Below, one piece after another: positions 2,111 to 31,157 of a stretch of DNA of 64,000 bases. The notes below the pieces were generated by a model. It did no database searches. It was not told the origin of the DNA and saw only the letters and a list, made by a program, of their open reading frames with translations. A program made the translations under genes and the position numbers. Source of the stretch: Thermoleophilia bacterium. Its GTDB lineage: Bacteria; Actinomycetota; Thermoleophilia; UBA2241. The first letter of the stretch is position 1; every line of letters begins with the position of its first letter. The stretch is from contig JAXGLO010000001.1 in the NCBI GenBank assembly GCA_040769125.1, positions 736,868-800,867 on the forward strand. Direction: 5' to 3'.

Positions 2111-2167
2111 GCCGCTCGATGAGAGGCTTCTCATTCGTGTCTCACGGCCTTCTCATGCTGGTCGCCC

Positions 2168-3169: not shown

Positions 3170-3254
3170 GAACCTTCTCACCCCCGTCTCATCGGCGTTT
3201 CATGTGCAGGCGGCAGAGTGATAGCGACCTGCAAAGGCAGTTGTAGGAGGCAGC

Positions 3255-3647
3255 ATGACCACTCGCTTCATCCTTATCCTGACTATCGTTGCGCTCGTTC
3301 TCGGGGGCGTCGCTGCAGCGTTCGTCCAGGCGGGGTCTGGTGACGACTCCGGCTCACCGCTCGCGCCCGTCTCGACGTCGCCCGATCCGGCGCAGGAGCC
3401 CGATCCCGTGAAGACGTCCGTCAACAGCGACGCTCGCCACGACGACGTCGAGTCCGAGATGGAGGCATTCGAGGCCGACTGGGACGACGATGACCAGGGC
3501 GACGACGACAACACCCTCGCCAGCACGCCCAGCGTTCCCAGCGCGCGTAGCACTCCGAGCGTGCGCAGCAAGCCCAGCGCACCCAGCAAGCCGAGCGTAC
3601 GCAGCACACCGAGCGCTCCCAGCGCTCCAAGCGCCGCCACCAACTGA
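3255..3647 (+). CDS. Small membrane-anchored protein with an acidic region and a Pro/Ser hexapeptide-repeat tail
   Basis: AGGAGG RBS 6 nt upstream of the ATG. N-terminal TM helix (FILILTIVALVLGGVAAAF), a D/E-rich segment, then STPSVPSARSTPSVRSKPSAPSKPSVRSTPSAPSAPSAA encoded by an 18-nt periodic DNA repeat. Confidence 0.6.
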   Translation: MTTRFILILTIVALVLGGVAAAFVQAGSGDDSGSPLAPVSTSPDPAQEPDPVKTSVNSDARHDDVESEMEAFEADWDDDDQGDDDNTLASTPSVPSARSTPSVRSKPSAPSKPSVRSTPSAPSAPSAATN

Positions 3648-3803
3648 GAAACCAGTGAAGCGACCTGTCTCATGAGGCTTCGAGGATGCCGCGAGGGGGA
3701 GCGGTACCGATCCCTCTCGCGGCCGACCCATTGGCGCAGGCACCACCTCTGCGTTACGGTGAGAAGGTAGGGTCACGACGAACTGCGATAGGGAGGCGCG
3801 CGA

Positions 3804-4172
3804 ATGACCCGCATCGCCATCATCGCCATCGCTGCTCTGCTGGTCCTCGGCGTTGTGGGCACCACTCTCTCGAGAGCTCAGAATCGGGACCCGGGGCCGG
3901 CGATCATGCTCGAGAAGGAGCCCACCGGCGGCAACGAGTCCGGCCAAGACAAGGACGGCGGTGCTCGCGCCGAGGACGACGTGCGCGGTTATTACGAGGA
4001 CGCGGCGGTGAGCGACGACCGGGACGACGGGTTCACCGTCGCGCATCCGCAGCCCGTCGGGGGCGGCAACGTCCAGCCGGACGACGACGGCTGGGACGAC
4101 GACGGACCAGGCGATGACGGACGGGATGACGACGGACCGGACGACGATGACGACGGACCGGACGATGACTGA
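3804..4172 (+). CDS. Small membrane-anchored protein with an extremely Asp-rich C-terminal tail (paralogous architecture to 3255..3647)
   Basis: GGGAGG RBS. N-terminal TM helix (IAIIAIAALLVLGVVG) followed by low-complexity sequence DDDGWDDDGPGDDGRDDDGPDDDDDGPDDD. Confidence 0.6.
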   Translation: MTRIAIIAIAALLVLGVVGTTLSRAQNRDPGPAIMLEKEPTGGNESGQDKDGGARAEDDVRGYYEDAAVSDDRDDGFTVAHPQPVGGGNVQPDDDGWDDDGPGDDGRDDDGPDDDDDGPDDD

Positions 4173-4183
4173 CCCCACCCTGC

Positions 4184-5824
4184 TTGGGGGCGGGCGCCAC
4201 GACGCTGTGGAGTGACTGGATGGCTGGAGGGAGCGGGATTCCTCCGTCGCGGCCGACGGGCGGAGCGCAGGTCCTTGCGATCTTCGGGCCCGCTACGCCT
4301 TGGGCCGACAAGACCCTCAGCTATGAGGGGGATCAGTTCGTCCTCGAGGACCACGGCCCTATCGCCCCCGAGGTCGTTCTCTGGCACGACCAGCAGGGCA
4401 ACCTGGTGTGGCCGTACGAGGGGCTACGGAAATGGGCGCTTGGGGTGGCCTCGCGGCCGGCTTCGACAATCCGCCCGGTCGAGAGCTGTGCGGACAACCG
4501 GTGCGACGCGGACAACCGGTGCGCTGCGGATAATCGGTCGGTGGTTACGAACGACGAGCCCGCGGAGAAGAGCGAGTCGCGGACTCGGAGCAGGGCTCTG
4601 CTGCTGCCGGCCGTCTTCCTGATCGGGTTCGCTCTCGTCGGAGTGGTCGCGACGGTCGCCAAGGGCGGCTACCTCCGCGACGGTATCGGCATCGCCTGCG
4701 CGGCGATGGCCGGGGCCTTGGCCGTCCTCGGCGTCGTGAGCCTGGTTCGGCCGTCGGCGCTCAGCCGAAGCGCAGCTGCTTCCTCCTTCTCCCGTCTCTC
4801 ACCTGGTCGGCTCCCGCTGATCCTCGCCTGCCTGTGCGCGGCGTTCCTCGCCCTCGCCGCCGTGCTCTGGTGGCTGCCGCACTACGAGGTCATCGTTCCT
4901 GCCGACAAGCGTGTGGCGCTCGATGAAGCGCCGGCGCTGGTCGTTACGGTGAAGAACCGCGGCCTCCTGTCGGGTACCTACAAGGCCGTTTACCGGCTGG
5001 CGGGTCGAGCGGCGTCCTCTGTTGAGCTGGCGCTCAACGCCGGGCAGGAGCAGGCGGTTGCGTTGTCGCTGCCTCGAGACAGTCAATGCGGCCCGTACGT
5101 GCTGGAGCTGGGTTCGACGACGATCCCGGTGGAGGTGGTCCGCCCGGCCAGGTTCAGCGTCGGGCGGCTGAAGGCCGATCCCTCGGTCACCAAGGTCCGT
5201 CAGGCGGTAAAGGTGGTCGCCTCCGTCAAGAACGCCGGTGGTATCAGCGGAACCTTTCCAGGAGTCTTGCTGGCCAACGGGAGAAAGGTGAGCACGCGAC
5301 CCGCGGAGATTGGGGCTGGAGGCAGCGCAACGATTACGTTCGTCGTCTTGCCGGGCTCGCGAGGGCTCTGCCGTCTCCAGCTCGGCGACGCACGAACGAC
5401 CGTCATGGTGGTGCAGCCGGTGCGGCCACCGAACGGCAAGGTGCTTCATCGCCGGATTCGTGGCGGGAGGGCGCACCTCACCGTCAAGAACGCGAACGGG
5501 ATCGACGCGATGGTCATCCTGACGAGGGCCAAGTCGCCGAGGAAACCCGCTCTGGCGGTCTACGTGCGAGGACGCGGGAGCGCCAGCGTCCACAACGTGC
5601 CCGACGGCCGGTACATCGTGTGGGACTGTATCGGACGTGACTGGAACGCCCATACCAAGGGCTTTCTCGCCACCGAGGAGTACTCGCGGTGGCGCGACCC
5701 GCTGGTGTTTGCGACGAAGCGCCTGCCGGGTCGGGTGCGCTGGAAGAACTGGGCGCTCACGCTGGGAAGCGGCCCAAGCGAGAAGGCCGTCGTGACGTCG
5801 TCACGGCAGTTCCCGGAGCTGTAG
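4184..5824 (+). CDS. Polytopic membrane protein with CARDB-like (VKNxG) extracellular repeats
   Basis: Hydrophobic helices (LLLPAVFLIGFALVGVVATV, IACAAMAGALAVLGVVSLV, LILACLCAAFLALAAVLWWL) are followed by repeated VTVKNRG / VKNAGG / LTVKNANG beta-rich segments typical of CARDB domains. The ORF starts with TTG at 4184; the ATG at 4220 is an alternative start. Confidence 0.6.
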   Translation: MGAGATTLWSDWMAGGSGIPPSRPTGGAQVLAIFGPATPWADKTLSYEGDQFVLEDHGPIAPEVVLWHDQQGNLVWPYEGLRKWALGVASRPASTIRPVESCADNRCDADNRCAADNRSVVTNDEPAEKSESRTRSRALLLPAVFLIGFALVGVVATVAKGGYLRDGIGIACAAMAGALAVLGVVSLVRPSALSRSAAASSFSRLSPGRLPLILACLCAAFLALAAVLWWLPHYEVIVPADKRVALDEAPALVVTVKNRGLLSGTYKAVYRLAGRAASSVELALNAGQEQAVALSLPRDSQCGPYVLELGSTTIPVEVVRPARFSVGRLKADPSVTKVRQAVKVVASVKNAGGISGTFPGVLLANGRKVSTRPAEIGAGGSATITFVVLPGSRGLCRLQLGDARTTVMVVQPVRPPNGKVLHRRIRGGRAHLTVKNANGIDAMVILTRAKSPRKPALAVYVRGRGSASVHNVPDGRYIVWDCIGRDWNAHTKGFLATEEYSRWRDPLVFATKRLPGRVRWKNWALTLGSGPSEKAVVTSSRQFPEL

Positions 5825-5935
5825 CGGCGTGCGGGCGGCGGTCGGTTTGGTCTGGCGACGAGGCGCTGCGTGCTTGAGCACGCTCGGCGCCGTCGACGCC
5901 GTCCCGCTCTCGGCGGCAGTCCGGCAGGAAAGGCG

Positions 5936-7465
5936 ATGACCACGAGCAGGGGCACTACAGGCCGCGGAAGTCCGCCCGGGGGAGCCGGCACGCCGCGCTC
6001 CGGGCGCAAGCCCCTTCTGCGCCTGCCCTCCAGACTGGCCCTGACCGGCATCCGCACGCGTATCCTCCTGGGCTTCATCGTGATGCTCGCGATCGCCACG
6101 GCGGCGTCGCTCTTCGTTGCCTACGAAGTGGTCCAGACCAGACTGCACGAGCGTATCGACAGCGACCTTGCCCGAGAGGCTGAGGAGCTGCGGAAGATCG
6201 CGGCCGGCAAGGACCCCGCCACCGGCCGTAGTTTCGGCCAGAACGCGGCCAGGATCTTCAGGGTCTACTTCGACCAGACTTCACCGACGACGGGCGAGGT
6301 TGCACTCACGTTCGTCGATGGAAGCGAGTTCCTGCGCAGTCGCTCAGTCTCTGCCTCTTCCTCTCCGTCCTACCGCCTCGATACCGATGAGCAGCTCGTC
6401 TCCCACTGGAAGGCTCTCACGGAGCCGGAGCGCGACGGCGTCGACACGCCTGCCGGGAGAGTGGAGTACCTCGCCCTACCCCTGAAGGGCGACGGCCGCG
6501 TGCTCGGTACCTTCGTCGTCGCCGCATTCACCGATGTGCTGCAAGGCCCCTACAACGATGCGTTCCTGGCGGCCGGGGTCGTCGGCGTGGCGGTGCTTCT
6601 CATCGGCTCCCTGCTCGCCTGGCGCATGGCCGAGAGCGTCCTGCAGCCGGTCAGCGCGTTGACGCAGACGGCGCAAGGCATCTCCGAGACGGACCTGACG
6701 CAGCGGATCGAGGTGCGCGGTCACGACGAGCTCGCCGGCCTCGCTGCTACCTTGAACGCAATGCTCGACCGGCTCGAGCGGACCCTGTTGAGTCAGAGGC
6801 GCTTTCTCGACGATGCGGGGCACGAGCTGCGCACCCCGATCACGATCGTCCGTGGGCATCTCGAGCTGCTCGAGGACGACCCTGAGGAGCGGCGGGCGAC
6901 GCTGGATCTCGTGATGGATGAGCTCGACCGCATGACGCGTATGGTCAACGATCTCATCCTGCTCTCGAAGGCCGAGCGTCCCGACTTTCTTAAGCTTGAA
7001 GCGGTCGAGGTGGCGGTGCTGACCGACGAAGTCCTGACCAAAGCGCGTGCGCTGGGAGCGCGGGGCTGGCGGCTCGACGCTTGCGGCAAAGGCGTTATCA
7101 CGGTGGACCGCCAGCGCCTCACCCAGGCGCTCGTGCAGCTCGCGCAGAACGCCGTCACGTACACGCAGGAGGGGGATGAGGTCTCGCTTGGGTCCGCCGT
7201 CGAGGGCGGTGAGGCGCGCTTCTGGGTGCGCGATGACGGCCTCGGCATCGCGGTGGCCGACCAGGAGAGGATCTTCGAGCGCTTCGAGCGCGGCGGGGCC
7301 AGAGGGCCGAGCGGCGGCTCTGGCCTGGGTCTCTCGATCGTGCGCGCGATCGCCGGGGCGCACGGCGGCCGGGTGGATCTGTTCAGCGCCCCCGGCGCGG
7401 GCTCGTTGTTTACAATCGTGGTGCCCGTCGACGGGCCTCGCGGCACGGGGAAGGAGGAAGGATGA
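5936..7465 (+). CDS. Sensor histidine kinase (HAMP-HisKA-HATPase_c)
   Basis: H-box LDDAGHELRTPITIVRGHLELL and ATP-lid motifs DDGLGI ... GGSGLGLSIVRAIAGAHGG. TM helix LLGFIVMLAIATAASLFVAY. I place the start at ATG 5936 (RBS AGGAAAGG); the track ORF begins at 5870. Confidence 0.85.
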   Translation: MTTSRGTTGRGSPPGGAGTPRSGRKPLLRLPSRLALTGIRTRILLGFIVMLAIATAASLFVAYEVVQTRLHERIDSDLAREAEELRKIAAGKDPATGRSFGQNAARIFRVYFDQTSPTTGEVALTFVDGSEFLRSRSVSASSSPSYRLDTDEQLVSHWKALTEPERDGVDTPAGRVEYLALPLKGDGRVLGTFVVAAFTDVLQGPYNDAFLAAGVVGVAVLLIGSLLAWRMAESVLQPVSALTQTAQGISETDLTQRIEVRGHDELAGLAATLNAMLDRLERTLLSQRRFLDDAGHELRTPITIVRGHLELLEDDPEERRATLDLVMDELDRMTRMVNDLILLSKAERPDFLKLEAVEVAVLTDEVLTKARALGARGWRLDACGKGVITVDRQRLTQALVQLAQNAVTYTQEGDEVSLGSAVEGGEARFWVRDDGLGIAVADQERIFERFERGGARGPSGGSGLGLSIVRAIAGAHGGRVDLFSAPGAGSLFTIVVPVDGPRGTGKEEG

Positions 7466-8136
7466 GCCGCATTCTGATAGTCGAAGATGAGGAGCGCATC
7501 GCCTCCTTTCTCGCGAAAGGCCTCCGTGCGCAGGGCTACGTCACCGACATCGCGGCGACCGGCAGCGATGGGCTGGCACGTGCGTTGAGCGGCGACGCCG
7601 ACCTCGTGATCCTCGACATCGGCCTGCCCGACCGGGACGGCTTCTCGGTTCTCAGGGAGCTGCGTCAGTACGACCGGCGCCTCCCGGTGGTGATCCTCAC
7701 CGCCCGCGACGACGTGGAGGACAAGGTCGCCGGGTTCGACGAAGGCGCCAACGACTACGTCACCAAGCCGTTCAAGTTCGACGAGCTCCTCGCGCGCGTG
7801 CGCGTCCGCCTGCGCGAGGGCGAGCGCGCTCCCGCTGAGACGGTGATGCGCGTCGGCGACCTCGCCCTCGATCTGCGGACGCGCCGCGCGCGCGTTGGGC
7901 AGAGGGAGGTCGAGCTGAGCGCCCGCGAGTTCGCCCTCGCCGAGCTTCTCTTCCGGCATCCGGGCCAGGTGCTGAGCCGCGAGCAGATACTCAACAACGT
8001 GTGGGGCTACGGCTTCGACCCGGGTTCGAACATCGTCGACGTCTATATCGGGTATCTGCGCAAGAAGCTCGGGCGCGACTCCATCACGAGCGTTCGCGGC
8101 ATGGGGTACCGGCTGGAGAAGAAGGAAGCCGGCTGA
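7462..8136 (+). CDS. OmpR-family response regulator
   Basis: Receiver domain (ILIVEDE ... LVILDIGLPDRDG ... VVILTARDD ... DDYVTKPF) plus a winged-helix output domain (LSAREFALAELL ... GYRL). It overlaps the kinase gene by 4 nt (ATGA). Confidence 0.9.
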   Translation: MSRILIVEDEERIASFLAKGLRAQGYVTDIAATGSDGLARALSGDADLVILDIGLPDRDGFSVLRELRQYDRRLPVVILTARDDVEDKVAGFDEGANDYVTKPFKFDELLARVRVRLREGERAPAETVMRVGDLALDLRTRRARVGQREVELSAREFALAELLFRHPGQVLSREQILNNVWGYGFDPGSNIVDVYIGYLRKKLGRDSITSVRGMGYRLEKKEAG

Positions 8137-9097: not shown

Positions 9098-9457
9098 TCA
9101 CCCGCAGTCGCGTACCGACTGTCGGGTTGAGGCTCTAGTTGGGCGGGAAGCGGGGACGAGACGTACCTCGACCTTGCAGCCCACCGCTCGGGCGTACTTT
9201 TTCAGCGTCTCCACCGAGGGCGAGTGTTTGCTGAGGCCCTCCAGTCGGGAGACGGCGCTCTTCGTGGTGCCCATGCAGGCAGCTACCTGCTCCTGGGTGA
9301 GGCCGGCCTGGGCACGGGCGGCGAGAAGCTCGCGGACGAGTGCGTATTCGTCGGCGCGCTCAGCGTAGGCCTCGGCGAAGCCGTTGCGCTTCATGGCGCG
9401 GGCGAGGAACTCATCGTGGTCATGGGCGACCGCGTGGTACCTCTGCTCAGCCATCAC
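9098..9457 (-). CDS. HigA-like XRE-family HTH antitoxin
   Basis: HTH motif LTQEQVAACMGTTKSAVSRLE. The start overlaps the stop of the upstream toxin-like ORF, the layout of higBA and Gp49-type pairs in which the toxin comes first. Confidence 0.7.
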   Translation of the reverse strand: MMAEQRYHAVAHDHDEFLARAMKRNGFAEAYAERADEYALVRELLAARAQAGLTQEQVAACMGTTKSAVSRLEGLSKHSPSVETLKKYARAVGCKVEVRLVPASRPTRASTRQSVRDCG

Positions 9458-9647
9458 GTACCTCCTTCATGCGCCGGCGGGCGATCATGAGATCGTGCTT
9501 GGGCGTCACCCAAGGGGGCATGCGTAGGTCGGGACCGAGCTCAATGAGCAGCTCGATGAGGCGCGCGTAGTCGGCGAGGATGCCGGCCGGCCAGCGTTCG
9601 ATCTCCGCTAGGAGACGCTCGTTGAAGTGCTCGACGGAGTACGGCAT
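9447..9647 (-). CDS. Degenerate HigB-like (phage Gp49/DUF891-type) toxin, internally truncated to 66 aa
   Basis: The N-terminus MPYSVEHFNERLLAEIERWPAGILADYARLIELLIELGPDLRMP and the C-terminus IARRRMKEVRDG resemble the two ends of the ~110-aa Gp49-like killer family. The central beta-sheet core of roughly 45 aa is missing. Confidence 0.5.
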   Translation of the reverse strand: MPYSVEHFNERLLAEIERWPAGILADYARLIELLIELGPDLRMPPWVTPKHDLMIARRRMKEVRDG

Positions 9648-9814: not shown

Positions 9815-9890
9815 GCCCTCGTAGCTCAGTGGATAGAGCACAGGTCTCCTAAACCTGGTGTCGAAGGTTCGATTCCTTCCGGGGGCACCA
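9815..9890 (+). tRNA. tRNA-Arg (anticodon CCT)
   Basis: Cloverleaf read in gccctcgtagctcagtggatagagcacaggtctCCTaaacctggtgtcgaaggttcgattccttccgggggcacca: 7-bp acceptor stem, D-arm GCTCAGTGGATAGAGC, anticodon loop cuCCUaa, T-arm GGTTCGATTCC, encoded CCA. Confidence 0.85.
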
Positions 9891-10020: not shown

Positions 10021-10365
10021 TCACTCTTCAGGGACTGGCTCTTCCCCACAGTAGCGGGTGAGCGCAGCCTCAAGACCATCTTGGTCGGGCGTTGCCAGGT
10101 GAGCCTTCGTTTGGATCTTGGCCAGGGATGCGGATTCGAGGTGCACCCAGTCGATGGCGGCCAGCTTTCCATTTGCTATGGAATGCGTCGCGACGCCCGA
10201 CCCTAGCCGGCGAACATTGTCGGCTTCCATGGTTAGAAGTGGTCCGCGCGGAGCCTTCTTGTCGACGCCGACGGCGGCTATGAGCGCGGATCCCATGACG
10301 GGCGTGATCAACAGAATGCCTGCCCCGAGGCCTACCTCGTGTCCCGGCTTGCAATGGTCCATCAC
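10021..10365 (-). CDS. FmdE/FwdE-family domain protein, apparently N-terminally truncated
   Basis: Contains the FmdE-like motif DHCKPGHEVGLGAGILL (GHxCPG-type). The reading frame is open upstream to ~10470 with no ATG, GTG or TTG start, which suggests a remnant next to the tRNA. Confidence 0.4.
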   Translation of the reverse strand: MMDHCKPGHEVGLGAGILLITPVMGSALIAAVGVDKKAPRGPLLTMEADNVRRLGSGVATHSIANGKLAAIDWVHLESASLAKIQTKAHLATPDQDGLEAALTRYCGEEPVPEE

Positions 10366-10475: not shown

Positions 10476-13400
10476 ATGGATGTGAATGACGGACAGCGCA
10501 ATTGGCTCAACGTTCGAGAGGTCGCTCAGCGGTTGGGCGTGCACGAGAACACAGTGCGGAATTGGACCAAGAAAGGCCTGCTGTCGGCAGCTCGCTTACC
10601 CGGATCCAGGTTCCACAGGTACGACCCGGGAGACGTAGAGAGACTCCTTCTTCAGAGAAAAAGCACTCCGACCTCGCTGTCGCGGCAGCGACTGACTATA
10701 GGGCCAGAACTTGTCAACGCCGGTCAGTTGCGCGCGTGGGCGGGAACGCGTGAGGCTCAGGCTGTGTTCCCCGAATTGATTCGGCGGCTCCTTACGCACA
10801 CGCCTGGCGTAACAAACATATCCATTCGGGCAGGCGATTCCGTGTCTGCACCTGGATGGGATGGTTGTGCGACCTCAGCCGGAACGACTTTCCTGCCGGC
10901 AGGCGAGTTGCGCTTTGAGTTCGGAGTCGATAAGTCGCCGAGGCGGAAAGCCGATCACGACTACAAGGTTCGTGTTCGCCAGCTCGATGGCGAGCCTTCT
11001 AATGCCACGTTCATCTTCGCGACGCCCCGACGGTTCAACAACGCATCAAAATGGGCTGAGAGCAGACAGTCGGAAGGTGCTTTTGCAGGCGTTCGCGTGC
11101 TCGATGCGGACGACCTAGAAGGCTGGCTGCAGACCACGCCCGTTGTCCATCAGTGGATTTCGGAACAGCTCGGCCGGAGGCCAAGCGATGCCCGGACTCT
11201 CGATGAATGGTGGGCTCGGTTTCGAGAGCGTACGAAGCCTCCTCTCCATCCTGGCATTTTCCTAGCGGGCAGAGAGCGCGAGCAGAAGATGCTGGGCGAG
11301 TTCCTTGAGGGCCCACCGGGCGTTCTTTCAGTTCGTGCTCCTTGGCGCGATGAGGCGATCGCGTTCGTGGCGGCAGTGACGGCTGCTCGAGCGAGCCAGG
11401 GCTTGGTGGACTCCATTGGGGTCATCATCAGTTCCGCCGAGGCGTGGGACCGGGTTGTCGATCAGGTGGGGTATGGCACCCTGCTGCCTCTCATCGAGGC
11501 CCCAGGAGTGGCGCGGGCATTGGATCGTGGACATCACGTCATCCTCCCGATTGCGCTGGACGCGATACCTCGAGGCGACACCATCGACCTTCCGCGACCA
11601 GATCGCAACGGCATAATAGAACTTCTCGAAGAGGCTGGGATCTCGTCGCACCGTGGGCACAGGCTTGCTGCCCTGGCCAGGCGCAGCATGCCTTCCTTCA
11701 TTAGGGAGTTGGCGGTCGATCGCACCCTGAATCGTCCGGAGTGGGCCAGCCCTCATGCTGCGCACATTGTGGCTCCTCTCGTCCTTGTGGGTTCATGGAC
11801 AGATACCGAGGCTGACGTCGGAATCGTCGAGAGACTAGTCGGGAGGTCTTGGTCAGACATTGAGCGCACACTACGTGCGCTGAGTGCCACGGAAGATCCG
11901 CCGTTCCTCAGTCGAAGCCGGCGGTGGTATCTCGCTTCGCCACAGGAAGCCATTCTCGTGCTTGCAAGTTTGATTACGGCCGAGGACCTCGCTCGCTGGC
12001 GCGAGGCAGTGTTCGATGTTCTCCTGGAGGTGGACCCCCGGCTGGATCTGAGTCCCCATGATCGCTCCATGGCTGCCGTGACCGGATCAGTGCGCCGCTT
12101 TTCGGGCGCCTTGCGCAAGGGGATCGCTCAAGGTGTCGCTCTTGTTGGGACCCTGTATGACTACCGATTGAGTGGCGGGCAATGCGGCGCAGATCATGCT
12201 CGGGTGCTCGTGCGCGAGATTCTGACTCGTGCGAATGCCGACACAACAGGCCGCACCTGGCAGTCACTCGAGGATGTGCTTCCGCTTTTAGCTGAAGCGG
12301 CGCCGAACGAGTTTCTTGAAGCAGTTCACCTTGATCTCGACCGGGAGGAGCCACTCTTGCGCGACATGTTCCAGGATCGCGATGAGGGTGACCCACTCTC
12401 CTCCTGGTCACCGCACACGGGTCTACTCTGGGCACTTGAGGTGCTCTGCTGGTCTCCCGACTATTTGGCGGATGCGACTTGGGCTCTAGCTCGGCTGGAC
12501 GCCATTGATCCTGGAGGCAGGTTGTCCAATAGGCCATTGAGGAGCTTGGGTAGCGTCCTCGCAGGGCGGGTGCGCCAGACCTGCGCATCGCTCGAAACGC
12601 GTGTGTCGGCTGTGAAAGCAATCTGCCAGCGTGTGCCCGAGACGGGCTGGCAGCTGCTCCTTGCCCTTTGGCCCAGTCATGATTCATGGGCCATGCCGCC
12701 CGTCTCGCCTAAGTTCGAGGACTGGGAACCGGAGAGCAAGAACGTCCTCTTTGTCGAGTACGTCGAGTTCATTGGCGAGCTTGTCCGGCTGGGCGTTCAG
12801 ATGGCCGGCCATGATGCGGTGCGATGGGCTGAGCTGAGCGGCAGGCTCGGCTCACTTCCTCCTAGCGAGCGCGACGAACTGCTGGCGGCTTTCGAGGAGG
12901 TAGTCCAGGATCCGGAAGGCTTCAACAAAGATGAGCGACTCCTGTTATGGGAGCAGCTGCGCCAAACGGTGGAGCGTCACAGGCGCTACCCCACAGCGGA
13001 TTGGTCTCTGAAAAGAGCGCCGCTGGTGCGAATGCAGGCCATTGTTGATCATCTGGAGCCGGTCGATGCAGCGGCACGACTTGCCTACCTGTTTGACTGG
13101 CGTCCTGATTTACCCGGGGTCAATCCGCTCGATCACACCGTGTACGACCGCGAGCTTCTTGATCGCCAGACCCGCGCCCTCGTCGAAGTTTTGCATGACT
13201 CGATCGGCGGCCTCGATCGGCTAGTAGGGCGAAGCCCAGCCCCGGAGATGGTGGGGCGGGCACTTGCCGGAGTCGATTCAGAGGACCTGATTCCTGACTT
13301 GCTGGCATGGATTGTCTCTGATGATGAGAAGCGGCAGAAGTGTGCGAGCGCATGGGCTGTACGGAAGATTCAGGATCACGGAGTGGCGTGGCTGCGCATG

Positions 13401-14453
13401 GCGTTGGCCCTGGAGGGCGCTGCACTTCCAGCGTGTCGCGAGCAGCTTGCGCTCAGCGCAACGCCTAACAGGGAGGTGTGGGACTTGCTGGCAGAGGTCG
13501 ACGCAGAATTGAGCGACGCCTACTGGCAGCAGGTGAGCATATGGCAGCTCGCTCCCGGGGACGTTGAGCGCGCAGTGACTGAGCTGATGTCTCGCGGGCG
13601 GCCATGGGCGGCTCTGGCGCCAATTGCTCTTCATATTCACGATGCCGACGAGGCCACCATTATGGTCACCCCAGATCTCGTGCAGGGGCTGCTTGACGCG
13701 ATGCTGCGTACGGCTCCGGGAGACGCCGCGTCCCAGGCTCCTGGGGATGAAGTGGAGATTCTCCTCGACTACCTAGAGAGCCATGTTGACGCAAGCGTTG
13801 TCGCCCGCTACGAGTTCGGCTTTTTTCCATTACTGGAGTACTGGCGCCAGCCTCGCTCGCTGTTCGCGGTGCTCGCTCGTGATCCGGATGAGTTTGTTGC
13901 GCTGGTACAGCTGGCTTATCGCGGTAAGGACGAGTCAAAGCGCTCGCTAGACGAGCGCGATCAGGCATTAGCGCGGTGTGCCTTCCGGGTTCTTGAGCAC
14001 TGGAAAGGCACCTTCCCTGGGTATGAGGGCGGGACGCTTCGCATGGACGGACTGAGGCAATGGGTTCGACAGGCTCGGGACGCCTTGGCGGAATCCAACA
14101 GGGCAGATATCGGAGACGAGCAGATTGGTCAGGTTCTTGCGCGAAGCGCCGTCGGTGCCGATGGCATTTGGCCAGCGGAAGGCGTGAGGGAACTGATCGA
14201 GGAGATCGGCAGCGAGGGGCTGGAGACGGGCCTGTACATCGGTCTCCGCAATCAACGTGGCGTCACTAGCCGGAGGCCGTTCGAGGGCGGACAGCAAGAA
14301 CGCGATCTGGCGGCGAAATATCGTGCCTGGGAGAAGCAGACAGCGGGGCGGTGGCGTCGTACGAGCCGCCTTCTGCGGTGCGTGGCCGAGAGCTACGAGC
14401 GAGATGCCCGGCGCTGGGATGATGACGCAGAGCTGTTGGCTGATACGGACTGA
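10476..14453 (+). CDS. Large (1325 aa) protein with an N-terminal excisionase/MerR-type HTH and a C-terminal region of unknown function
   Basis: Uninterrupted 3978-nt ORF. The N-terminal motif LNVREVAQRLGVHENTVRNWTKKGLL ... RYDPGDVERL is HTH_17-like. The remainder is alpha-helical and Trp/Leu-rich. It contains a P-loop-like but lysine-less segment, LEGPPGVLSVRAPWRDEAIAFVAAV. I find no intact Walker A, helicase or nuclease motifs. Confidence 0.85.
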   Translation: MDVNDGQRNWLNVREVAQRLGVHENTVRNWTKKGLLSAARLPGSRFHRYDPGDVERLLLQRKSTPTSLSRQRLTIGPELVNAGQLRAWAGTREAQAVFPELIRRLLTHTPGVTNISIRAGDSVSAPGWDGCATSAGTTFLPAGELRFEFGVDKSPRRKADHDYKVRVRQLDGEPSNATFIFATPRRFNNASKWAESRQSEGAFAGVRVLDADDLEGWLQTTPVVHQWISEQLGRRPSDARTLDEWWARFRERTKPPLHPGIFLAGREREQKMLGEFLEGPPGVLSVRAPWRDEAIAFVAAVTAARASQGLVDSIGVIISSAEAWDRVVDQVGYGTLLPLIEAPGVARALDRGHHVILPIALDAIPRGDTIDLPRPDRNGIIELLEEAGISSHRGHRLAALARRSMPSFIRELAVDRTLNRPEWASPHAAHIVAPLVLVGSWTDTEADVGIVERLVGRSWSDIERTLRALSATEDPPFLSRSRRWYLASPQEAILVLASLITAEDLARWREAVFDVLLEVDPRLDLSPHDRSMAAVTGSVRRFSGALRKGIAQGVALVGTLYDYRLSGGQCGADHARVLVREILTRANADTTGRTWQSLEDVLPLLAEAAPNEFLEAVHLDLDREEPLLRDMFQDRDEGDPLSSWSPHTGLLWALEVLCWSPDYLADATWALARLDAIDPGGRLSNRPLRSLGSVLAGRVRQTCASLETRVSAVKAICQRVPETGWQLLLALWPSHDSWAMPPVSPKFEDWEPESKNVLFVEYVEFIGELVRLGVQMAGHDAVRWAELSGRLGSLPPSERDELLAAFEEVVQDPEGFNKDERLLLWEQLRQTVERHRRYPTADWSLKRAPLVRMQAIVDHLEPVDAAARLAYLFDWRPDLPGVNPLDHTVYDRELLDRQTRALVEVLHDSIGGLDRLVGRSPAPEMVGRALAGVDSEDLIPDLLAWIVSDDEKRQKCASAWAVRKIQDHGVAWLRMALALEGAALPACREQLALSATPNREVWDLLAEVDAELSDAYWQQVSIWQLAPGDVERAVTELMSRGRPWAALAPIALHIHDADEATIMVTPDLVQGLLDAMLRTAPGDAASQAPGDEVEILLDYLESHVDASVVARYEFGFFPLLEYWRQPRSLFAVLARDPDEFVALVQLAYRGKDESKRSLDERDQALARCAFRVLEHWKGTFPGYEGGTLRMDGLRQWVRQARDALAESNRADIGDEQIGQVLARSAVGADGIWPAEGVRELIEEIGSEGLETGLYIGLRNQRGVTSRRPFEGGQQERDLAAKYRAWEKQTAGRWRRTSRLLRCVAESYERDARRWDDDAELLADTD

Positions 14454-14567
14454 GTGCCGCGCAGTCGGCAGCACTACTGACACCGGCTGGCGCTGGCTTC
14501 ACGCCGGCAAGCTCGCGAACCGGCCGTACATCAGGCGCTTCTGCGCTCCTCAGACGTCGTGTAGGCC

Positions 14568-14677
14568 TGTGCACGGCGCCTGGCTCGCAGCCGAATCCTG
14601 CTTACGAGTCGCTCCTTAATGGCTTGTCGCGATCTCGTTACCGCAACCTCCGTCACCCAGCAGTGATAGCGTGCCAG
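14568..14677. repeat. Copy 1 of a ~110-nt imperfect direct repeat (about 80% identity to 19053..19162)
   Basis: tgtgcacggcgcc...cgagtcgctcct...cctccgtcacccagcagtgatagcgtgccag; the final ~40 nt are nearly identical between copies. Confidence 0.75.
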
Positions 14678-14721
14678 CCGATTGACAGGCGCATATTCCT
14701 TCCGGATAGGGGGGTGTTGAT

Positions 14722-15669
14722 GTGACGCGCAAGCGTTGGCTCATGCTTGTTGCCGTGGCGGCCGTGGCGATCATCGCCGGTGTGCTGGCGTGGGGGCTGA
14801 GTGGCTCAACGCTCACGGCCACCGTAGTCGACAAGCGAACCGGCGAGCCGCTGCCGAAGGTCGTCGCTAAGGTGGACGATGAGTCCATCTCTACGTCAGA
14901 TGGACGAGTCGACGTCAAGATTGCGCTCGGGACGCACACAGTCGAGTTTGCAGCGGCGGGCTACGAGACCGTCTCGCGCACAGTGGAAGCGCGCATCTTC
15001 CGCGCGGCCGATCTTGGCGAAGTGCCCCTGCGCAATGCAGATCTGGTCATCAAGGTGGTCGAGAACTTCCCCGGTGAACCACCGGTCAAGGCGGCCAGGC
15101 TTGAGGTCGCCGGTGAGACCAGCATGGTGCGACGGGGTGACGCGGTGACAATCGAGGGCCTGGCAATCGGCCCGACTACGCTGAAGGCTACAGCCAGGGA
15201 CTACGAACCTACGAACGTCGAGCTCGAGCTAACGCCGGGGTCGAACGAAGTCGTTGTCAGCCTGACCCCCGAGATGCTCGTTGTCGTGCGGCGGGCGATA
15301 CAGGCCTCTTTCGACCACGACCACTTGCTGAACTGGGAGCTCCTGCATCCGGATCGCCAACGGCTGCACGGCTCGCGGGCCGCATACCTCAAGAAGAGGC
15401 GAAGGGCTGTTGATGAGCTGCTCGACGAGGGCATCGTCCCCCAGCGCTTTAAGGTCTTGACCCCCTTCTTCGTCAAGCGCTACCACGACAAGGCCACCGG
15501 CAAGACTTACAAGGATGCCTACCGCGTGCCCATCACGATATGGGCGGGAGCCCCTCAGCTGGCCATCTTCAACATGAAGTCGATGGCCGTGACACAGGAC
15601 AGCTACTGGGTGAAGACGGATGAGGGTCGCTGGGTAAGCCTCGGTGACGGTGAATCGGTGGACAAGTAG
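14722..15669 (+). CDS. Membrane-anchored protein with carboxypeptidase-regulatory-like (Ig-like) domains
   Basis: N-terminal TM/signal anchor WLMLVAVAAVAIIAGVLAW, then TATVVDKRTGEPLPKVVAKVDD ... GTHTVEFAAAGYETVSRTVEA, which is typical of CarbopepD_reg-like folds. Confidence 0.75.
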   Translation: MTRKRWLMLVAVAAVAIIAGVLAWGLSGSTLTATVVDKRTGEPLPKVVAKVDDESISTSDGRVDVKIALGTHTVEFAAAGYETVSRTVEARIFRAADLGEVPLRNADLVIKVVENFPGEPPVKAARLEVAGETSMVRRGDAVTIEGLAIGPTTLKATARDYEPTNVELELTPGSNEVVVSLTPEMLVVVRRAIQASFDHDHLLNWELLHPDRQRLHGSRAAYLKKRRRAVDELLDEGIVPQRFKVLTPFFVKRYHDKATGKTYKDAYRVPITIWAGAPQLAIFNMKSMAVTQDSYWVKTDEGRWVSLGDGESVDK

Positions 15670-15809
15670 AGTCCCGGCCTCTCGCCCAGAACAGCATCGT
15701 GAAGCAGGGGAACGGCGGTCTCGCAAAGTCATCACTGTGTGGAGTGCCGGCGCCGCTGGCGTGACCTTCCCTATTGGCAACGGTGTGTCGAATAGAGCGC
15801 CCTGTACAG

Positions 15810-16118
15810 GTGATCTTGAGGGCAGATAGGTTGAGGGGTGGTGTGGCGGGCTTTGGTCTGGTGCTTGTGTCAGCGGGACTTGCTTCCTGCAATGGGAGAG
15901 CTGTCGTGTCGTACTCCAAGGCTGGAGCGAGGAGGCCGGCATGCCTGACCTGTGCGAGACGCTTCTACTCGAGAGCAGCTGGACGTCCTGATTGCGGAGC
16001 TTACGGCGCTGCGCTTCGAGATGCCTCTGTTGAAGGACCGGTGAGGGAGCGTTGGGCGTGCGGCATCCTGCAGTTCAGCCGAAGCGAAGGGCCGTTCGAG
16101 GAGCGAGGCGATGAGTGA
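15810..16118 (+). CDS. Putative small Cys-rich lipoprotein
   Basis: The GTG at 15810 gives a signal peptide ILRADRLRGGVAGFGLVLVSAGLASC with lipobox L-A-S-C. The stop TGA overlaps the ATG of the next gene (gATGAgtga). The track ORF starts at ATG 15774. Confidence 0.35.
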   Translation: MILRADRLRGGVAGFGLVLVSAGLASCNGRAVVSYSKAGARRPACLTCARRFYSRAAGRPDCGAYGAALRDASVEGPVRERWACGILQFSRSEGPFEERGDE

Positions 16119-16821
16119 CCCGGTCGATGTCCTTGAACCCAATCCGATCTTAGGGTTGATCAAGTTCGGCGCCGCTGCCCACCTGCGCGAACTGTGCCTC
16201 CAAGGGCGCCTTTTCATGAATGCGCTGAACTACTTCAGGCAGCTGAATGATGATCCGGCGCGAGGCGACGGCGATGAGGGCCTCATGTACTGTTATCAGC
16301 CCTCTCGTACTGCAGTGGAGGTCCGAGCGAAAGGCACCTGGCAACGAGTCGGGGGTATCGTTGGTCCCATCAAGTGCCGCGAGGGGAACGGCACGAACGG
16401 GAACCTGTTCTGCATGTTCGCGCTCAGAGCAAGCCATGCTGTGGCCTTTGCTGAGGCGAGGCGCCCGCTCATCGACGAGCGAAACCGGGCTTTCGGAGAC
16501 AGCGCTGTCGTCATCACTGACGTCGACGAGTTCCTGCGGCGTGTGACCGTCGCCACAGAGCGGGAAGGTCTGAGGCTGTACGCAAGACCTGTTAACTACG
16601 TCAACCAGCACAGCTACCATGGGCCCATGGGGTTCTTTCGCAAGTTCTCCGACTACTCATATCAGAGCGAGTTCCGACTGCTGGTCAAACCAGGGTGCAC
16701 TGGCCCGCGCTCCCTTGAGTTGGGCTCGATCGAGGACATCGCGGTGATGGTGGCCTCGGAGAGCATCAACAGCCTGCTCCGGGTGAGATCGGATGACGGA
16801 GGAGTGTACGGCCCTCCATGA
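16111..16821 (+). CDS. Hypothetical protein (236 aa), candidate effector
   Basis: Clean ORF coupled to the upstream ORF. Its N-terminal pattern LGLIKFGAAAHLRELCLQGRLFMNALNYFRQL resembles conserved N-termini of several phage-defence-associated families, but I cannot assign it to one. Confidence 0.7.
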   Translation: MSDPVDVLEPNPILGLIKFGAAAHLRELCLQGRLFMNALNYFRQLNDDPARGDGDEGLMYCYQPSRTAVEVRAKGTWQRVGGIVGPIKCREGNGTNGNLFCMFALRASHAVAFAEARRPLIDERNRAFGDSAVVITDVDEFLRRVTVATEREGLRLYARPVNYVNQHSYHGPMGFFRKFSDYSYQSEFRLLVKPGCTGPRSLELGSIEDIAVMVASESINSLLRVRSDDGGVYGPP

Positions 16822-16888
16822 TGCCGCGCCGTGCGCTGATGGTGGCGATGTGATGTCAGTAGGGGCTGTCCAAAGAACGGAGGGATTG

Positions 16889-17458
16889 ATGATTGTTCTG
16901 GATGTTCGGCTCGTTGGCTGCGAGTTCGAGGAGGCTGACGTCGCCGCCGTGCGCCGCGAGTCCACCTCGGTCTTGGCGCTGAGGGCGACTGGCCGGGGTT
17001 CGACAGGGGCCGGCCCAGGGCTCGAGGTCACAACGGTCATCTACTTTATTGGCGGGTCTTTCGTGGGCTTTGTGCTCGAGAAGGTCTTCGACGCCGTCTG
17101 GGAGCGGCTGAGGAGTGCCTGGACTCGCTTTCGTGACGACCGCAGGAGTCGGCAGCGGTCTGATCCGACCTTCGGCAGGGTGGTCATCCGCACGGATGAT
17201 ATGGAGGTCGAGATCAGGCGTCTGGACGCCGACATTGAGCCCCCCGATCTCAGCGGGCTCCTTGAGCTAGTCGCGAATCGTCTCGAGAGCGGGTCACTTC
17301 GCGAGGTGCCCGTCGACAGCATCACGATCCCGCCGCCGCGCTCGGTGGGAGGTCCTCGCGACCGGGCTCAGGATTCGCAACTCTGGTATGTGGTGGCTCG
17401 CTCGATTGAGGGGCGCTGGGGACTCTACGATGCCGGCGAGGATCGCTGGCTGGACTGA
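16889..17458 (+). CDS. Hypothetical protein (189 aa from the ATG at 16889)
   Basis: Strong RBS (ACGGAGGG, 5 nt before the ATG at 16889). Longer in-frame alternatives at 16853 and 16793 overlap the preceding gene. One hydrophobic segment, VTTVIYFIGGSFVGFVL. Confidence 0.55.
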   Translation: MIVLDVRLVGCEFEEADVAAVRRESTSVLALRATGRGSTGAGPGLEVTTVIYFIGGSFVGFVLEKVFDAVWERLRSAWTRFRDDRRSRQRSDPTFGRVVIRTDDMEVEIRRLDADIEPPDLSGLLELVANRLESGSLREVPVDSITIPPPRSVGGPRDRAQDSQLWYVVARSIEGRWGLYDAGEDRWLD

Positions 17459-17661
17459 ACTGGTGGCGCCAACGTCCTTGATCTGGGCCTGGCGCTCGTT
17501 TCTCAATTAGCCTTCGGGCTTGCCAGCACGCCGTTGGTAGCAGCTCCACGTGCAGATCTTCTTACCTGGGTGGATGTTATGGAAGCCTGTGCAGCGAGGC
17601 TTTCGTGAGAACGGGCGCCCTCCCGCGCTTTAGTAGGTACGATGATCGATGTAATGAGGCG

Positions 17662-18864
17662 ATGAAAGGGCGGCGTGTGGAATACCGCATCACAGCAGAG
17701 GAACGGATCCCTAACAGTGGAGAGGATCGCACCCCCCGCTACCAGTTTAATATTACTGGTGGTCGCAATGAGACTGTGTGCTCTATACATGCATTGGGAT
17801 CTCTCAAAGCATGCGGATCTCTCAGTGAAATCGACTGGGAGGAAGTACTGAGTATGGTAGCGATCGATCAGATCGAGAGGACGCTCTTGGCAGATGCGCT
17901 CGACTGGTCGATCAATCCTTACCGTTGGGAGGTCAGTGATGAAGAGACCATCTTGAACGTAGACCGCGTCTCGAAGCTATGCGACATGCGCCTTCCGGCC
18001 AAGCCAAGAGGATTTCTATGTGCGGCCACAGAGACAGGCGATCCTGAGCCCACGACTCTGCCACTTTGCATGACGTGCGATATGCCGGACGCGCGCCTTG
18101 TCTGCAGTGGCTTGGTGCATCCGGTGACAGCCCTATCTAAAGCAGACGCCGACACGCTCTCACTCTCGGGCAATAGCGCGACTGCCGCGGACAATGTCGG
18201 TTTCAAGCGGAGCGTCACGAGAGCGTTTTGCGAGGCCCATCCCGAGTCTCAAGACTGGAAGAAATGTCGCCCGTGGCTCAGAGGCTGCTGGTACAGGATT
18301 GTTGATACGAGCGAAGCCGCGCCGTCACCTGACAGTGCCGCACCTAGGCGCATCGTGGATGAAGTCGGATACTTGCGCCTTGTGTACGCCGATCGTTTCC
18401 GGGTGAAGGCGAGTGAATTCTGGCCAAATCGCGATCCCAGTGCATATGCTGTCCTTCTTGATGATTCGTGTACGTCTCCTCGTCAGTTTGCGCACAACAT
18501 AGTCGTTTTGGACGATGTGCTCAGTGCCATGAATCCTCACGAGCAGCTGGCTGAAGACCGCAGGAAAAACGGCAGCCGTGTGAATGGAATCACGGCCATG
18601 GGTCGTGTCCTTGAGGATTGTATTGACGGTACAGACTGCTCTTACGTCAAGCCACTTCAGGCGTTGAAGACCGTTCGCAACTCCTTCTCGCACCAGCCTG
18701 GTGCCAAGTTGCTGGAAGCCCTGGGGACGCTCGGGGTTCAGTCCTATCCGCCCCACGATTGGCAGATCGCTTGGTGGCAAGTCGCCGCATCCGTGGCTCA
18801 GGCGCTCGCATCGATTCGATGGATACTCCAGACAACTAATGTCGACGATCCACAGGAAAGTTAG
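17662..18864 (+). CDS. Cys-rich protein with a C-terminal HEPN-like Rx4H motif (Abi-like)
   Basis: Start at MKGRRV (GAGG RBS). Several CxxC-type clusters in the N-terminal half. Near the C-terminus LQALKTVRNSFSHQPG fits the R-x4-6-H HEPN RNase signature seen in Abi_2/AbiD-like proteins. Confidence 0.7.
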   Translation: MKGRRVEYRITAEERIPNSGEDRTPRYQFNITGGRNETVCSIHALGSLKACGSLSEIDWEEVLSMVAIDQIERTLLADALDWSINPYRWEVSDEETILNVDRVSKLCDMRLPAKPRGFLCAATETGDPEPTTLPLCMTCDMPDARLVCSGLVHPVTALSKADADTLSLSGNSATAADNVGFKRSVTRAFCEAHPESQDWKKCRPWLRGCWYRIVDTSEAAPSPDSAAPRRIVDEVGYLRLVYADRFRVKASEFWPNRDPSAYAVLLDDSCTSPRQFAHNIVVLDDVLSAMNPHEQLAEDRRKNGSRVNGITAMGRVLEDCIDGTDCSYVKPLQALKTVRNSFSHQPGAKLLEALGTLGVQSYPPHDWQIAWWQVAASVAQALASIRWILQTTNVDDPQES

Positions 18865-19052
18865 ACGAGGTGATTTCCCTCTCGCGTTCTCGTGTCGCCG
18901 CTGAAGCGGGTTTCCTCTGATTATGGCGCTTCCGTTGCTTGGCGCGGGAGCGTTGTGGCTTGTCACCAAGTGCCTCGGCGCATTGGCGATAGTCGTCGGA
19001 TAATAATGACTTTGCAGATGCCTCTTCTTGCGGCTGACAGATCGTGCATACT

Positions 19053-19162
19053 TGTGCACGGCACCCGGTTCGCAGGCGAATCCCCCTCGCGAGTCGCTCC
19101 TCAACAGCCTGCCTCGCTCTTGCGGCCGCAGCCTCCGTCACCCAGCAGTGATAGCGTGTCAG
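19053..19162. repeat. Copy 2 of the ~110-nt imperfect direct repeat
   Basis: tgtgcacggcacccggttcgcaggcgaatccccctcgcgagtcgctcct...cctccgtcacccagcagtgatagcgtgtcag. Confidence 0.75.
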
Positions 19163-19253
19163 GTAATCGGTAGGCGCTCATTCCCTCCGACCGTGTATCT
19201 ACGTCCGCGGCATCGATGAGCGCCGTAGGGGCGGCGTAGCAGCGAGGTGAGAT

Positions 19254-25223
<5,970 letters not shown>

Positions 25224-25436
25224 GCGGCGGCAGCGTCAGGAGGTCGGCTGCAAGGGGCGGCGCTGTTTACGTGCGTCTTGACGCCTGGCTTTGGCAGGTG
25301 CCGGCGGCCCGCCGATAGGACGCAGAGCCGGCTCAGGCGCGGGCGCGTCGGTCGTCGGCTGAGCCGTCCTCCATGACGGCCGCAGCGAGCCGTGCACCTT
25401 GATTCTCAACGCGCTCTGTGTACAATTCAGTCACTG

Positions 25437-25480
25437 CTCCCCGTCGTCCGGGCTTCGGCCCGAACTGACGGGGTTTTTTT
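25437..25480 (+). terminator. Putative rho-independent terminator (GC hairpin followed by a T7 run)
   Basis: ccgtcgtccgggcttcggcccgaactgacgggg followed by ttttttt. Confidence 0.4.
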
Positions 25481-25488
25481 GGAGGCGC

Positions 25489-26112
25489 ATGGATTCGGCT
25501 CGCGTCATCGTGTTCCTTGACTACCAGAACGTCTACAACGGTGCTCGTGAGGCGTTCGGTCTGCGGGCTAAGGCCGGTCGCTACGGCCAGATCGACCCTC
25601 TCCGCTTGGCAAGGCTGATCGCCGACCGTCATCCGGAGGAGAGTCACGTCGCCGGTGTGCGTGTGTACCGGGGGCGCCCCGAATCGGCCAAGCAGCCGAA
25701 GGCGTACGGCGCCAACATGCGTCAGTCGGACGCCCAAAAGAAGCGTGGCGGCGGCCTGGTCAAGATCATTACGCGCACCTTGCGCTACCCTTGTAGCTGG
25801 CCTCATGAGCCGGCCCAGGAGAAGGGCATCGACGTGGCGCTGGCCGTCGACTTCGTCACCATGGCCATCAAGGGTGAGTACGACATCGGTGTGCTCATGT
25901 CGACCGACACCGACCTCATCCCGGCGCTCGAGGCAGTGATTGCCCTCGGTGGTCACCCCTACCCGCGCTGCGAGGTCGCGGCTTGGTCGAGTCCTGGCAC
26001 GTACTCTCGTCGTCTTCAGGTGCCCGGCAAGAAGCTCTGGTGCCATTGGCTCTGCCGTGAGGACTACGCCAAAGCCGAGGACCTCACCGACTACAACCGG
26101 CACGGCTCCTAG
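25489..26112 (+). CDS. NYN-domain (LabA-like) protein, putative RNase
   Basis: VIVFLDYQNV ... EKGIDVALAVDFV ... VLMSTDTDLIPALE are NYN/LabA hallmarks. GGAGG RBS before the ATG at 25489 (the track ORF starts at TTG 25399). Confidence 0.75.
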   Translation: MDSARVIVFLDYQNVYNGAREAFGLRAKAGRYGQIDPLRLARLIADRHPEESHVAGVRVYRGRPESAKQPKAYGANMRQSDAQKKRGGGLVKIITRTLRYPCSWPHEPAQEKGIDVALAVDFVTMAIKGEYDIGVLMSTDTDLIPALEAVIALGGHPYPRCEVAAWSSPGTYSRRLQVPGKKLWCHWLCREDYAKAEDLTDYNRHGS

Positions 26113-26641: not shown

Positions 26642-26678
26642 CGGTCCAAAACGGACCCCCCTCATCAAGTTCGTAGCA

Positions 26679-31150: not shown

Positions 31151-31157
31151 CTCGCCT

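Follow-up and report, generated by a model that had tools for sequence, protein, structure and literature searches.

A probable mosaic defence island with Avs-like and HEPN-like genes downstream of tRNA-Arg in a Thermoleophilia bacterium

We analysed a window of 64,000 nucleotides (nt) from a Thermoleophilia bacterium (contig JAXGLO010000001.1), in which a lower-GC segment downstream of a tRNA-Arg gene carries five genes on one strand, labelled here G1, G2, G4, G5 and G6. They are followed by a type I restriction-modification (R-M) operon and a gene for an NYN-domain protein (Table 1). The window has a high G+C content (0.66-0.75), which dips to 0.58-0.64 over approximately 9-22 kb; in the flanks of this segment it is 0.66-0.70. 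The R-M system is complete, with HsdM, HsdS and HsdR all recognised by PADLOC (MTase_I 5e-228, Specificity_I 1e-80, REase_I E = 0). An initial annotation, made from the sequence alone, had pointed to the tRNA, the drop in G+C content and the hsdMSR and NYN genes, and all of these were confirmed, the last two by Pfam and PADLOC. It had also counted six same-strand genes in a compact cluster. Five of them stand; the sixth, a mini-protein, is not a gene, and no gene is kept under its label. Nor is the cluster compact: the gaps from G1 through hsdM measure 268, 441, 67, 146-203 and 389 nt.

Table 1. Features of the locus, in coordinates of the window (aa, amino acids; HTH, helix-turn-helix; ORF, open reading frame).
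Feature	Position	Strand	Description and basis
tRNA-Arg (anticodon CCT)	9815-9890	+	Left landmark of the lower-GC segment; ARAGORN; Rfam tRNA, 70 bits
G1	10476-14453	+	1325 aa, stand-alone; HTH, predicted PD-(D/E)xK-fold and Walker-A-less STAND/AAA+-like domains, conserved C-terminal region of ~765 aa
G1 HTH, excisionase/MerR-type (aa 10-61)	10503-10658	+	Pfam HTH_17 3.6e-10, MerR_1 1.7e-7; PADLOC mad1 1.3e-9
G1 restriction-endonuclease (PD-(D/E)xK) fold (aa ~81-231)	10716-11168	+	Predicted model; conserved residues
G1 AAA+/STAND-like alpha/beta plus helical/winged-helix modules, no Walker A (aa ~256-560)	11241-12155	+	Predicted model
Direct repeat, copy 1 (~150 nt)	14557-14704	+	G1-G2 gap
G2	14722-15669	+	315 aa; N-terminal anchor, CarboxypepD_reg/Ig-like repeats and unassigned C-terminal half
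Proposed lipobox mini-protein ORF	15774-16118	+	Judged not a gene
30-codon remnant of an 83-aa ORF	15952-16044	+	Different frame from the mini-protein ORF; intact in loci L016 and L045
G4	16111-16821	+	236 aa; uncharacterised cross-phylum family
G5	16889-17458	+	189 aa; single hydrophobic segment (VTTVIYFIGGSFVGFVL)
G6	17605-18864	+	419-aa ORF; N-terminal alpha/beta domain, Cys-rich middle, C-terminal helical HEPN-like domain
RNSFSH of G6 (Rx4-6H motif)	18676-18693	+	R, N and H invariant in 13 close homologues
Direct repeat, copy 2	19042-19189	+	G6-hsdM gap
hsdM	19254-20837	+	Operon 19254-25223; Pfam, PADLOC
hsdS	20821-22092	+	As hsdM
hsdR	22089-25223	+	As hsdM
NYN-domain protein	25399-26112	+	Pfam NYN 3.8e-10; PADLOC candidate HEC-09 2e-10

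In every real gene at the locus the G+C content of second codon positions (GC2) is 0.42-0.50 and that of third positions (GC3) is higher. GC3 is 0.65 in G1, 0.79 in G2, 0.73 in G4, 0.76 in G5 and 0.60 in G6; the values for hsdM, hsdS and hsdR are 0.85, 0.69 and 0.89, and a core histidine kinase and response regulator have 0.83-0.88. Such heterogeneity, from 0.60 in G6 and 0.65 in G1 up to 0.85-0.89 in hsdM and hsdR, fits a mosaic origin. A search of 9.7-33 kb for an att-type direct repeat of the tRNA 3' end was negative, and the ORFs examined include no integrase. The counterpart of M20 is the first residue in homologues of G6, and M20 (17662) is probably the true start. Between the tRNA and G1 lies an opposite-strand ORF of 114 aa (10021-10365, -), called as 113 aa by gene finders and without a match in the PADLOC search.

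When all six proposed ORFs were searched against Pfam, NCBIfam, PADLOC and PHROGs, just an HTH, CarboxypepD_reg and two PHROGs of unassigned function were returned. As the initial annotation had maintained, the cargo genes match no described defence family; beyond a generic HTH they have no family in PADLOC, Pfam or NCBIfam. The neighbourhoods of their homologues, sampled at 10 annotated neighbourhoods for G1, about 20 independent loci for G4 and 3 independent loci for G6, show that the genes do not travel together. When every fetched locus was scanned with profile hidden Markov models (HMMs), members of different families were seen together in just two places, the window's own locus and a Photobacterium plasmid (L037), where relatives of G1 and G4 lie 5 kb apart on opposite strands. 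G2, G5 and G6 are found in none of the G1 neighbourhoods examined, and a G4 relative in that plasmid neighbourhood alone. Because the homologue neighbourhoods of G1, G4 and G6 differ, we regard these modules as independent. We read the region of 10.4-26 kb, downstream of tRNA-Arg, as a defence island assembled horizontally into a mosaic with at least four independent modules, in which G1 is Avs-like (resembling antiviral STAND proteins) and G6 is HEPN-like, and give this reading a probability of roughly 60%. Of the initial proposal of an undescribed defence system in a defence island, there remains an island-like mosaic beside type I R-M and NYN genes, and not one system. The gene models, the folds of aa 62-560 of G1, the conserved motifs, the missing co-occurrence and the link to mobile elements and defence genes are observed; the biochemical activities given below, and any anti-phage role of the cluster genes, are those that we infer.

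G1 represents a large family. Its homologues number at least 889, counted as clusters at 90% identity among the sampled hits, with a very uniform length of about 1320 aa, and identity among the best 120 is 47-57%. They come from metagenome-assembled genomes of Gaiellaceae, Solirubrobacterales, Thermoleophilaceae and Streptosporangiaceae; relatives at 26-40% identity are present in 24 plasmid records (Rhizobium, Shewanella, Cupriavidus, Ralstonia, Adhaeribacter and Arthrobacter), and 6 IMG/VR contigs carry relatives as well. The body of the protein (aa 80-1318) matches phrog_18693 at 1e-138, a family whose function is unassigned in PHROGs. The sources annotate G1 relatives solely as HTH regulators, and a literature search for the PHROG id and the protein accessions found nothing. 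The intact 1325-aa ORF is present in the window and in several Logan assemblies. In an NCBI assembly (a 1.84-Mb contig) with identical G2, G4, G5, G6 and hsdM, G1 appears as a 586-aa C-terminal call (P0326, start M740), a truncation that may be due to a frameshift or an assembly error.

Ten independent annotated neighbourhoods of G1 relatives were compared; an eleventh, L020, has no annotated features. G1 stands alone in every annotated neighbourhood, with different neighbours each time, and these are repeatedly genes of mobile elements or defence. They include an integrase with a TrwC relaxase; an integrase with Mrr_cat and PemK; NERD, PLD and a DISARM-like set of Eco57I-methyltransferase, SNF2 and DEAD-MZB genes; ParB or ParAB on two plasmids; DUF2357, a group II intron and a reverse transcriptase with SLATT and Shedu; ImmA/IrrE with a PDDEXK protein and DUF4238; and IS5 elements. 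On prophages, G1 relatives lie directly upstream of the terminase, beside an endolysin, or near a C5-methylase or an AAA_15/21-DUF3696 ATPase. Two unrelated plasmids each have a DUF4238 gene adjacent or close to the G1 relative, one in Adhaeribacter (L018, 11996-13237) and one in Photobacterium (L037, 9433-10239).

At the sequence level (Pfam, NCBIfam and a PDB profile search) the HTH alone is recognised in G1, and it is the sole Pfam match, as first described. The accompanying statement that the cluster has no recognisable motifs holds at this level; in the predicted structure of G1, in contrast, both a nuclease and a STAND-like fold can be recognised. These were read from an AlphaFold2 (AF2) model of aa 62-560, for which the predicted local distance difference test (pLDDT) is 87.7 and the predicted template modelling score is 0.80. 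Residues 81-231 adopt in the model the core fold of FokI/Mrr-type PD-(D/E)xK nucleases (AF1548, the FokI cleavage domain, MspJI, BspD6I and the type ISP enzyme LlaBIII), and D129 (GWDG), E148 (FEFG), K158, D162, R166 and D210 are invariant down to 25% identity, the first five of them across phyla. From aa ~256-470 onwards, fold similarity is greatest to ClpB NBD1 (9.3), the SIR2-STAND protein EfAvs5 (9.0 over 255 residues) and Dark (8.4), followed by PAB2304 (8.2), a TIR-NLR (7.7), CED-4 (7.4) and Apaf-1 (7.3); ORC/Cdc6 and RFC are also matched. For the C-terminal region, a weak HEAT_2 match (E 0.15) is the sole sequence hint of helical repeats. Proteobacterial homologues have another N-terminus in place of the HTH, or none. 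Membership in MADS was rejected: the match to PADLOC mad1 covers the 50-aa HTH alone, the 15-bit score for NCBIfam MAD1 is below the cut-off of 80, the remaining mad genes are missing, and the hsdM of the window fits a type I methyltransferase (5e-228) far better than mad2 (5e-50).

G6 has 13 close homologues, and a profile search retrieved 478 cluster representatives, mostly of 370-420 aa. Seven Cys and one Arg are invariant across 79 diverse members. The C-terminal Rx4H motif noted in the initial annotation is conserved in the close homologues (Table 1) and beyond them: the Arg is present in 79/79 diverse members, a His follows 5-7 residues later in 79/79, and Asn succeeds the Arg in 45/79. 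The AF2 model of G6 has an overall pLDDT of 62.7, with 75-90 in the C-terminal helical domain, moderate confidence in the N-terminal alpha/beta domain and poor confidence in the Cys-rich middle. Helix 345-360 closes at R358-N359, and H363 lies in the loop that leads to the helix at 367-375 (local pLDDT 77-90). This agrees with the placement described for the HEPN active-site motif, at the helix end and in the following loop (PMC3710099). HEPN toxins are the top Foldseek matches, with structural scores that are not significant. None of the 79 members matches a Pfam HEPN model, Pfam scans of the alignments of 13 and 79 members give nothing credible, and a PDB profile search gives no match. The putative HEPN-like assignment of the C-terminal domain, already made at the outset, is backed by motif conservation and position, and weakly by the fold search.

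With the HEPN RNase toxins (HEPN/MNT toxins, HepS and Abi-type proteins) G6 shares the Rx4-6H motif and, in those 45 members, the polar Asn; it differs from them in its unique N-terminal alpha/beta domain and in the region of seven invariant Cys, and no antitoxin or MNT partner adjoins it. It would act on its own, the Cys-rich region (probably metal-binding) and the N-terminal domain controlling a C-terminal HEPN-like RNase, as in abortive infection. The three independent neighbourhoods of G6 are all different and none contains G1, G4 or G5. A 1248-aa protein beside the G6 relative in L011 was considered as a relative of G1 and ruled out by tblastn and HMM. Scans of IMG/VR found neither G6 nor G4.

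G4 has 44 homologues in a word-indexed search and matches phrog_26561 at 2.5e-21. Its relatives occupy 15 genome loci in at least eight phyla and 11 plasmids; they occur in Acidobacteriota, Nitrospira, Proteobacteria, Bacteroidota, Fibrobacterales and others, and have no conserved neighbour. The conserved motifs are KFG..H, G.LYMN..YF..LE.D..R.D..EG and FRKFS.F.YQSEFRL, and 29 aligned members give no match in Pfam or the PDB. These motifs recall DUF2971, a tentative lead; G4 does not match DUF2971 in Pfam at E <= 5. The neighbours of G4 are variable and often of defence type: an AAA_15/21 ATPase, a PLD nuclease, DUF6602, Mrr, a type ISP enzyme, a ParB-methyltransferase, PIN_10, DUF5677, MmeI_N and an NYN homologue. 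The last of these, a HEC-09 homologue 74% identical to the NYN protein of the window, lies at 9171-9521 of a metagenomic island (L045), about 6 kb from the G4 homologue, which suggests a shared hotspot with exchangeable cargo.

Stand-alone abortive-infection genes are found within or beside type I R-M loci in the PrrC/RloC-type arrangement, and a position inside the R-M operon is a classic site of such genes. Here G4, G6 and the NYN gene flank hsdMSR. Elsewhere, in L035 (CASEYP010000033.1, ~2030-7982), a G4 relative lies between hsdM and hsdS of a type I R-M operon. Neither in sequence nor in fold are the genes here related to PrrC or RloC, and G4 has no recognisable domain.

G5 has no family match in Pfam, NCBIfam, PADLOC or PHROGs, and adjoins G4 just here and in L016, where the protein is 78% identical. 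The stretch common to the window and L016 is 15967-17531 (76.6% nucleotide identity). G5 was rejected as an obligatory partner of G4, as an unrelated gene lies downstream of G4 in L045, L046 and distant loci. An intact 83-aa ORF precedes G4 in L016 and L045, and the remnant in the window matches its C-terminal 27 aa, with synonymous changes. G4, the small membrane-type G5 and this decayed ORF together form a 1.56-kb cassette, found on plasmids and in defence islands. The initial annotation had placed in the same stretch a lipobox mini-protein translationally coupled to the 236-aa gene. A LASC string does exist in that ORF. Its G+C content is flat over the three codon positions (0.635/0.617/0.583), as in non-coding DNA, and no gene caller reports it. 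The DNA 5' of G4 aligns with L016 through indels that are not multiples of three, and the frame is not conserved there. On these grounds a bacterial lipoprotein was rejected. For G2, the initial description as an Ig-like protein was borne out: Pfam PF13620 (CarboxypepD_reg, Ig-like repeats) matches in two stretches at 1e-8, and the N-terminus is hydrophobic. G2 has no plasmid relatives, is absent beside G1, G4 and G6 relatives at other loci, and would be an unrelated membrane-anchored Ig-like protein.

Several observations weigh against a defence island with an Avs-like G1. In the nuclease-fold domain, the canonical Lys of (D/E)xK is an invariant Gly150, which makes the motif D...ExG; K158, part of an invariant triad with D162 and R166 on the next helix, may substitute for the missing Lys. 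In the STAND-like domain, the Walker A motif GK[ST] is missing from the P-loop-equivalent segment in all 12 diverse and 120 close homologues, which read APWRDEA in actinobacteria and GESPAEV, AESPQDV, ASSKDEA or SETAEEV elsewhere; seven chance Walker-A-like motifs all lie at non-homologous positions. Since no member has GK[ST] at the P-loop position, the module is very probably NTPase-dead, and it may be that neither the nuclease-fold nor the STAND-like domain is catalytically active. The PADLOC HMMs for Avs and other defence systems match none of G1, G4, G5 and G6, the mad1 match to the HTH of G1 apart. A sensor role for the C-terminal 765 aa is an assumption, and ParA/ParB genes beside G1 on two plasmids are compatible with a plasmid-maintenance or regulatory role. 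For G6 there are only three independent neighbourhoods, of which L010 looks like housekeeping. Finally, a direct repeat of about 150 nt brackets G2-G6 exactly, and this block could have moved as one piece.

On the other side stands the overall design of G1. The combination of a nuclease fold, a STAND-like core and a long C-terminus, on prophages, plasmids and defence islands, resembles that of antiviral STAND proteins (nuclease-effector Avs1-3/Avs7, SIR2-STAND Avs5 and KpAvs8), with which G1 shares the predicted central STAND/AAA+ fold. It differs from them in the absence of Walker A and of any PADLOC Avs match, in the ExG nuclease motif, in the extra N-terminal HTH of the actinobacterial members and in a C-terminal region without a TPR match at the sequence level. 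One Avs whose Walker motifs are degenerate, KpAvs8, is reported to be functional (PMC13581612). We call G1 Avs-like; membership in Avs is not established. As a single-gene module acting like an Avs protein, G1 would recognise an invader-derived ligand through its C-terminal region, and the NTPase-dead STAND-like core would serve as a conformational or oligomeric switch without hydrolysis. The FokI/Mrr-like nuclease-fold domain would then cut DNA, and the HTH might tether the protein to DNA or autoregulate its gene.

Alternatively, G1 could be a non-immune, DNA-binding regulatory or maintenance factor of mobile elements, concerned, for example, with the stability of plasmids or integrative and conjugative elements, with exclusion or with transcription, its nuclease-like and STAND-like domains being inactive scaffolds. 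The excisionase/MerR-type HTH at the N-terminus, the Gly at the catalytic Lys position, the lack of Walker A, the location of relatives beside ParA/ParB or ParB on plasmids and beside integrases and a relaxase, and the source annotation as HTH regulators would all suit such a factor. However, the HTH is dispensable: the homologues from Shewanella, Adhaeribacter and Ralstonia, like the PHROG profile, lack it or have it replaced. A functional site is favoured by the cross-phylum invariance of the polar pocket residues of the nuclease fold. In addition, defence genes recur as neighbours, and the conserved body of 1250 aa far exceeds known regulators of mobile elements in size. We consider this explanation unlikely.

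It is improbable that G2-G6 (14.7-18.9 kb) form one mobile cassette, working as a unit without dependence on G1, that was inserted between G1 and hsdM by recombination at the direct repeats. The two copies are 77% identical and share a 27-nt perfect core, CCTCCGTCACCCAGCAGTGATAGCGTG; no such repeat is expected by chance, and the copies bracket exactly G2-G6. Yet the 23% divergence between them argues against a recent single insertion, G4-G5 has its own boundaries in L016, without G2 or G6, and G6 relatives occur without G2, G4 and G5. The repeat is also unique to this locus, with no copies in the other fetched loci. As a dispersed element it was rejected, the single metagenome match being a chance 20-mer, and as a known RNA it has no Rfam match. 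A two-sequence fold of the repeats contains three compensatory pairs.

The proposal with which the analysis began, that all six genes belong to a single multi-component defence or abortive-infection system in which G1 is the HTH sensor, G6 the HEPN effector and the coupled small genes are accessories, is very improbable; it can point to the common strand in a lower-GC island beside type I R-M and NYN genes, to the recovery of an identical arrangement from several sequencing runs, made on the same population or on close relatives of it, and to the one Photobacterium plasmid with G1 and G4 relatives within 6 kb, but it is unsupported because the family members do not co-occur, the other cluster genes being missing from the G1 neighbourhoods (save G4 once), the roughly 20 G4 loci and the 3 G6 loci, while gaps of 268-441 nt separate most of the genes, GC3 differs strongly among them and the coupled mini-gene is not a gene. 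Co-occurrence in other genomes was the test that the initial annotation itself had named, and its outcome largely refutes the single system.

Within the mosaic-island reading, we propose more tentatively, at somewhat below even odds, that G1 represents a large, cross-phylum, unannotated class of NTPase-dead STAND-like receptors and, independently, that G6 represents a new HEPN family gated by a Cys-rich metal or redox module. If so, the G1 class, which occurs in Actinomycetota, Proteobacteria and Bacteroidota as well as in prophages, would consist of receptors in which a large sensor is joined to an effector with a non-canonical restriction-nuclease fold, accompanied in actinobacteria by an HTH. 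Such receptors would switch on without nucleotide hydrolysis and would be a natural test case of STAND scaffolds signalling without ATP. If these proteins are immune sensors, searches that rely on the NTP-binding motif, to which they are invisible, have overlooked a family of about 1000 or more large proteins. That family is present in soil Actinomycetota, on rhizobial and Shewanella plasmids and on prophages, and would extend innate-immunity-like receptors into soil lineages that have received little study, Gaiellales and Solirubrobacterales among them. Further unannotated candidates that recur beside R-M systems are the families of G4 and G6. The locus also gives reason for caution, in that neighbours on the same strand of an island do not thereby make a system.

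A few other features were noted in the window. Downstream of the NYN gene, at 26614-26659, two 21-nt copies of TGACGGTCCAAA(G/A)(T/C)GGACCCC lie 25 nt apart and could be an operator or terminator-like element. The ORF at 30785-31174 is flanked by the two copies (30755-30836 and 31285-31366) of a direct repeat of 82 nt with 94% identity. Tandem repeats at 32754-32787 (17 nt x 2, perfect) and 32863-32949 (29 nt x 3) are located at the start of an ORF at 32756-33778, opposite a CbiM/PDGLE gene. Further low-GC patches, down to 0.43-0.45, at 41000-46000 and 49000-51000 probably represent another horizontally acquired segment; GGDEF diguanylate cyclases are encoded at 41113-42270 and 43700-45085, the latter also with HAMP and CHASE3 domains.

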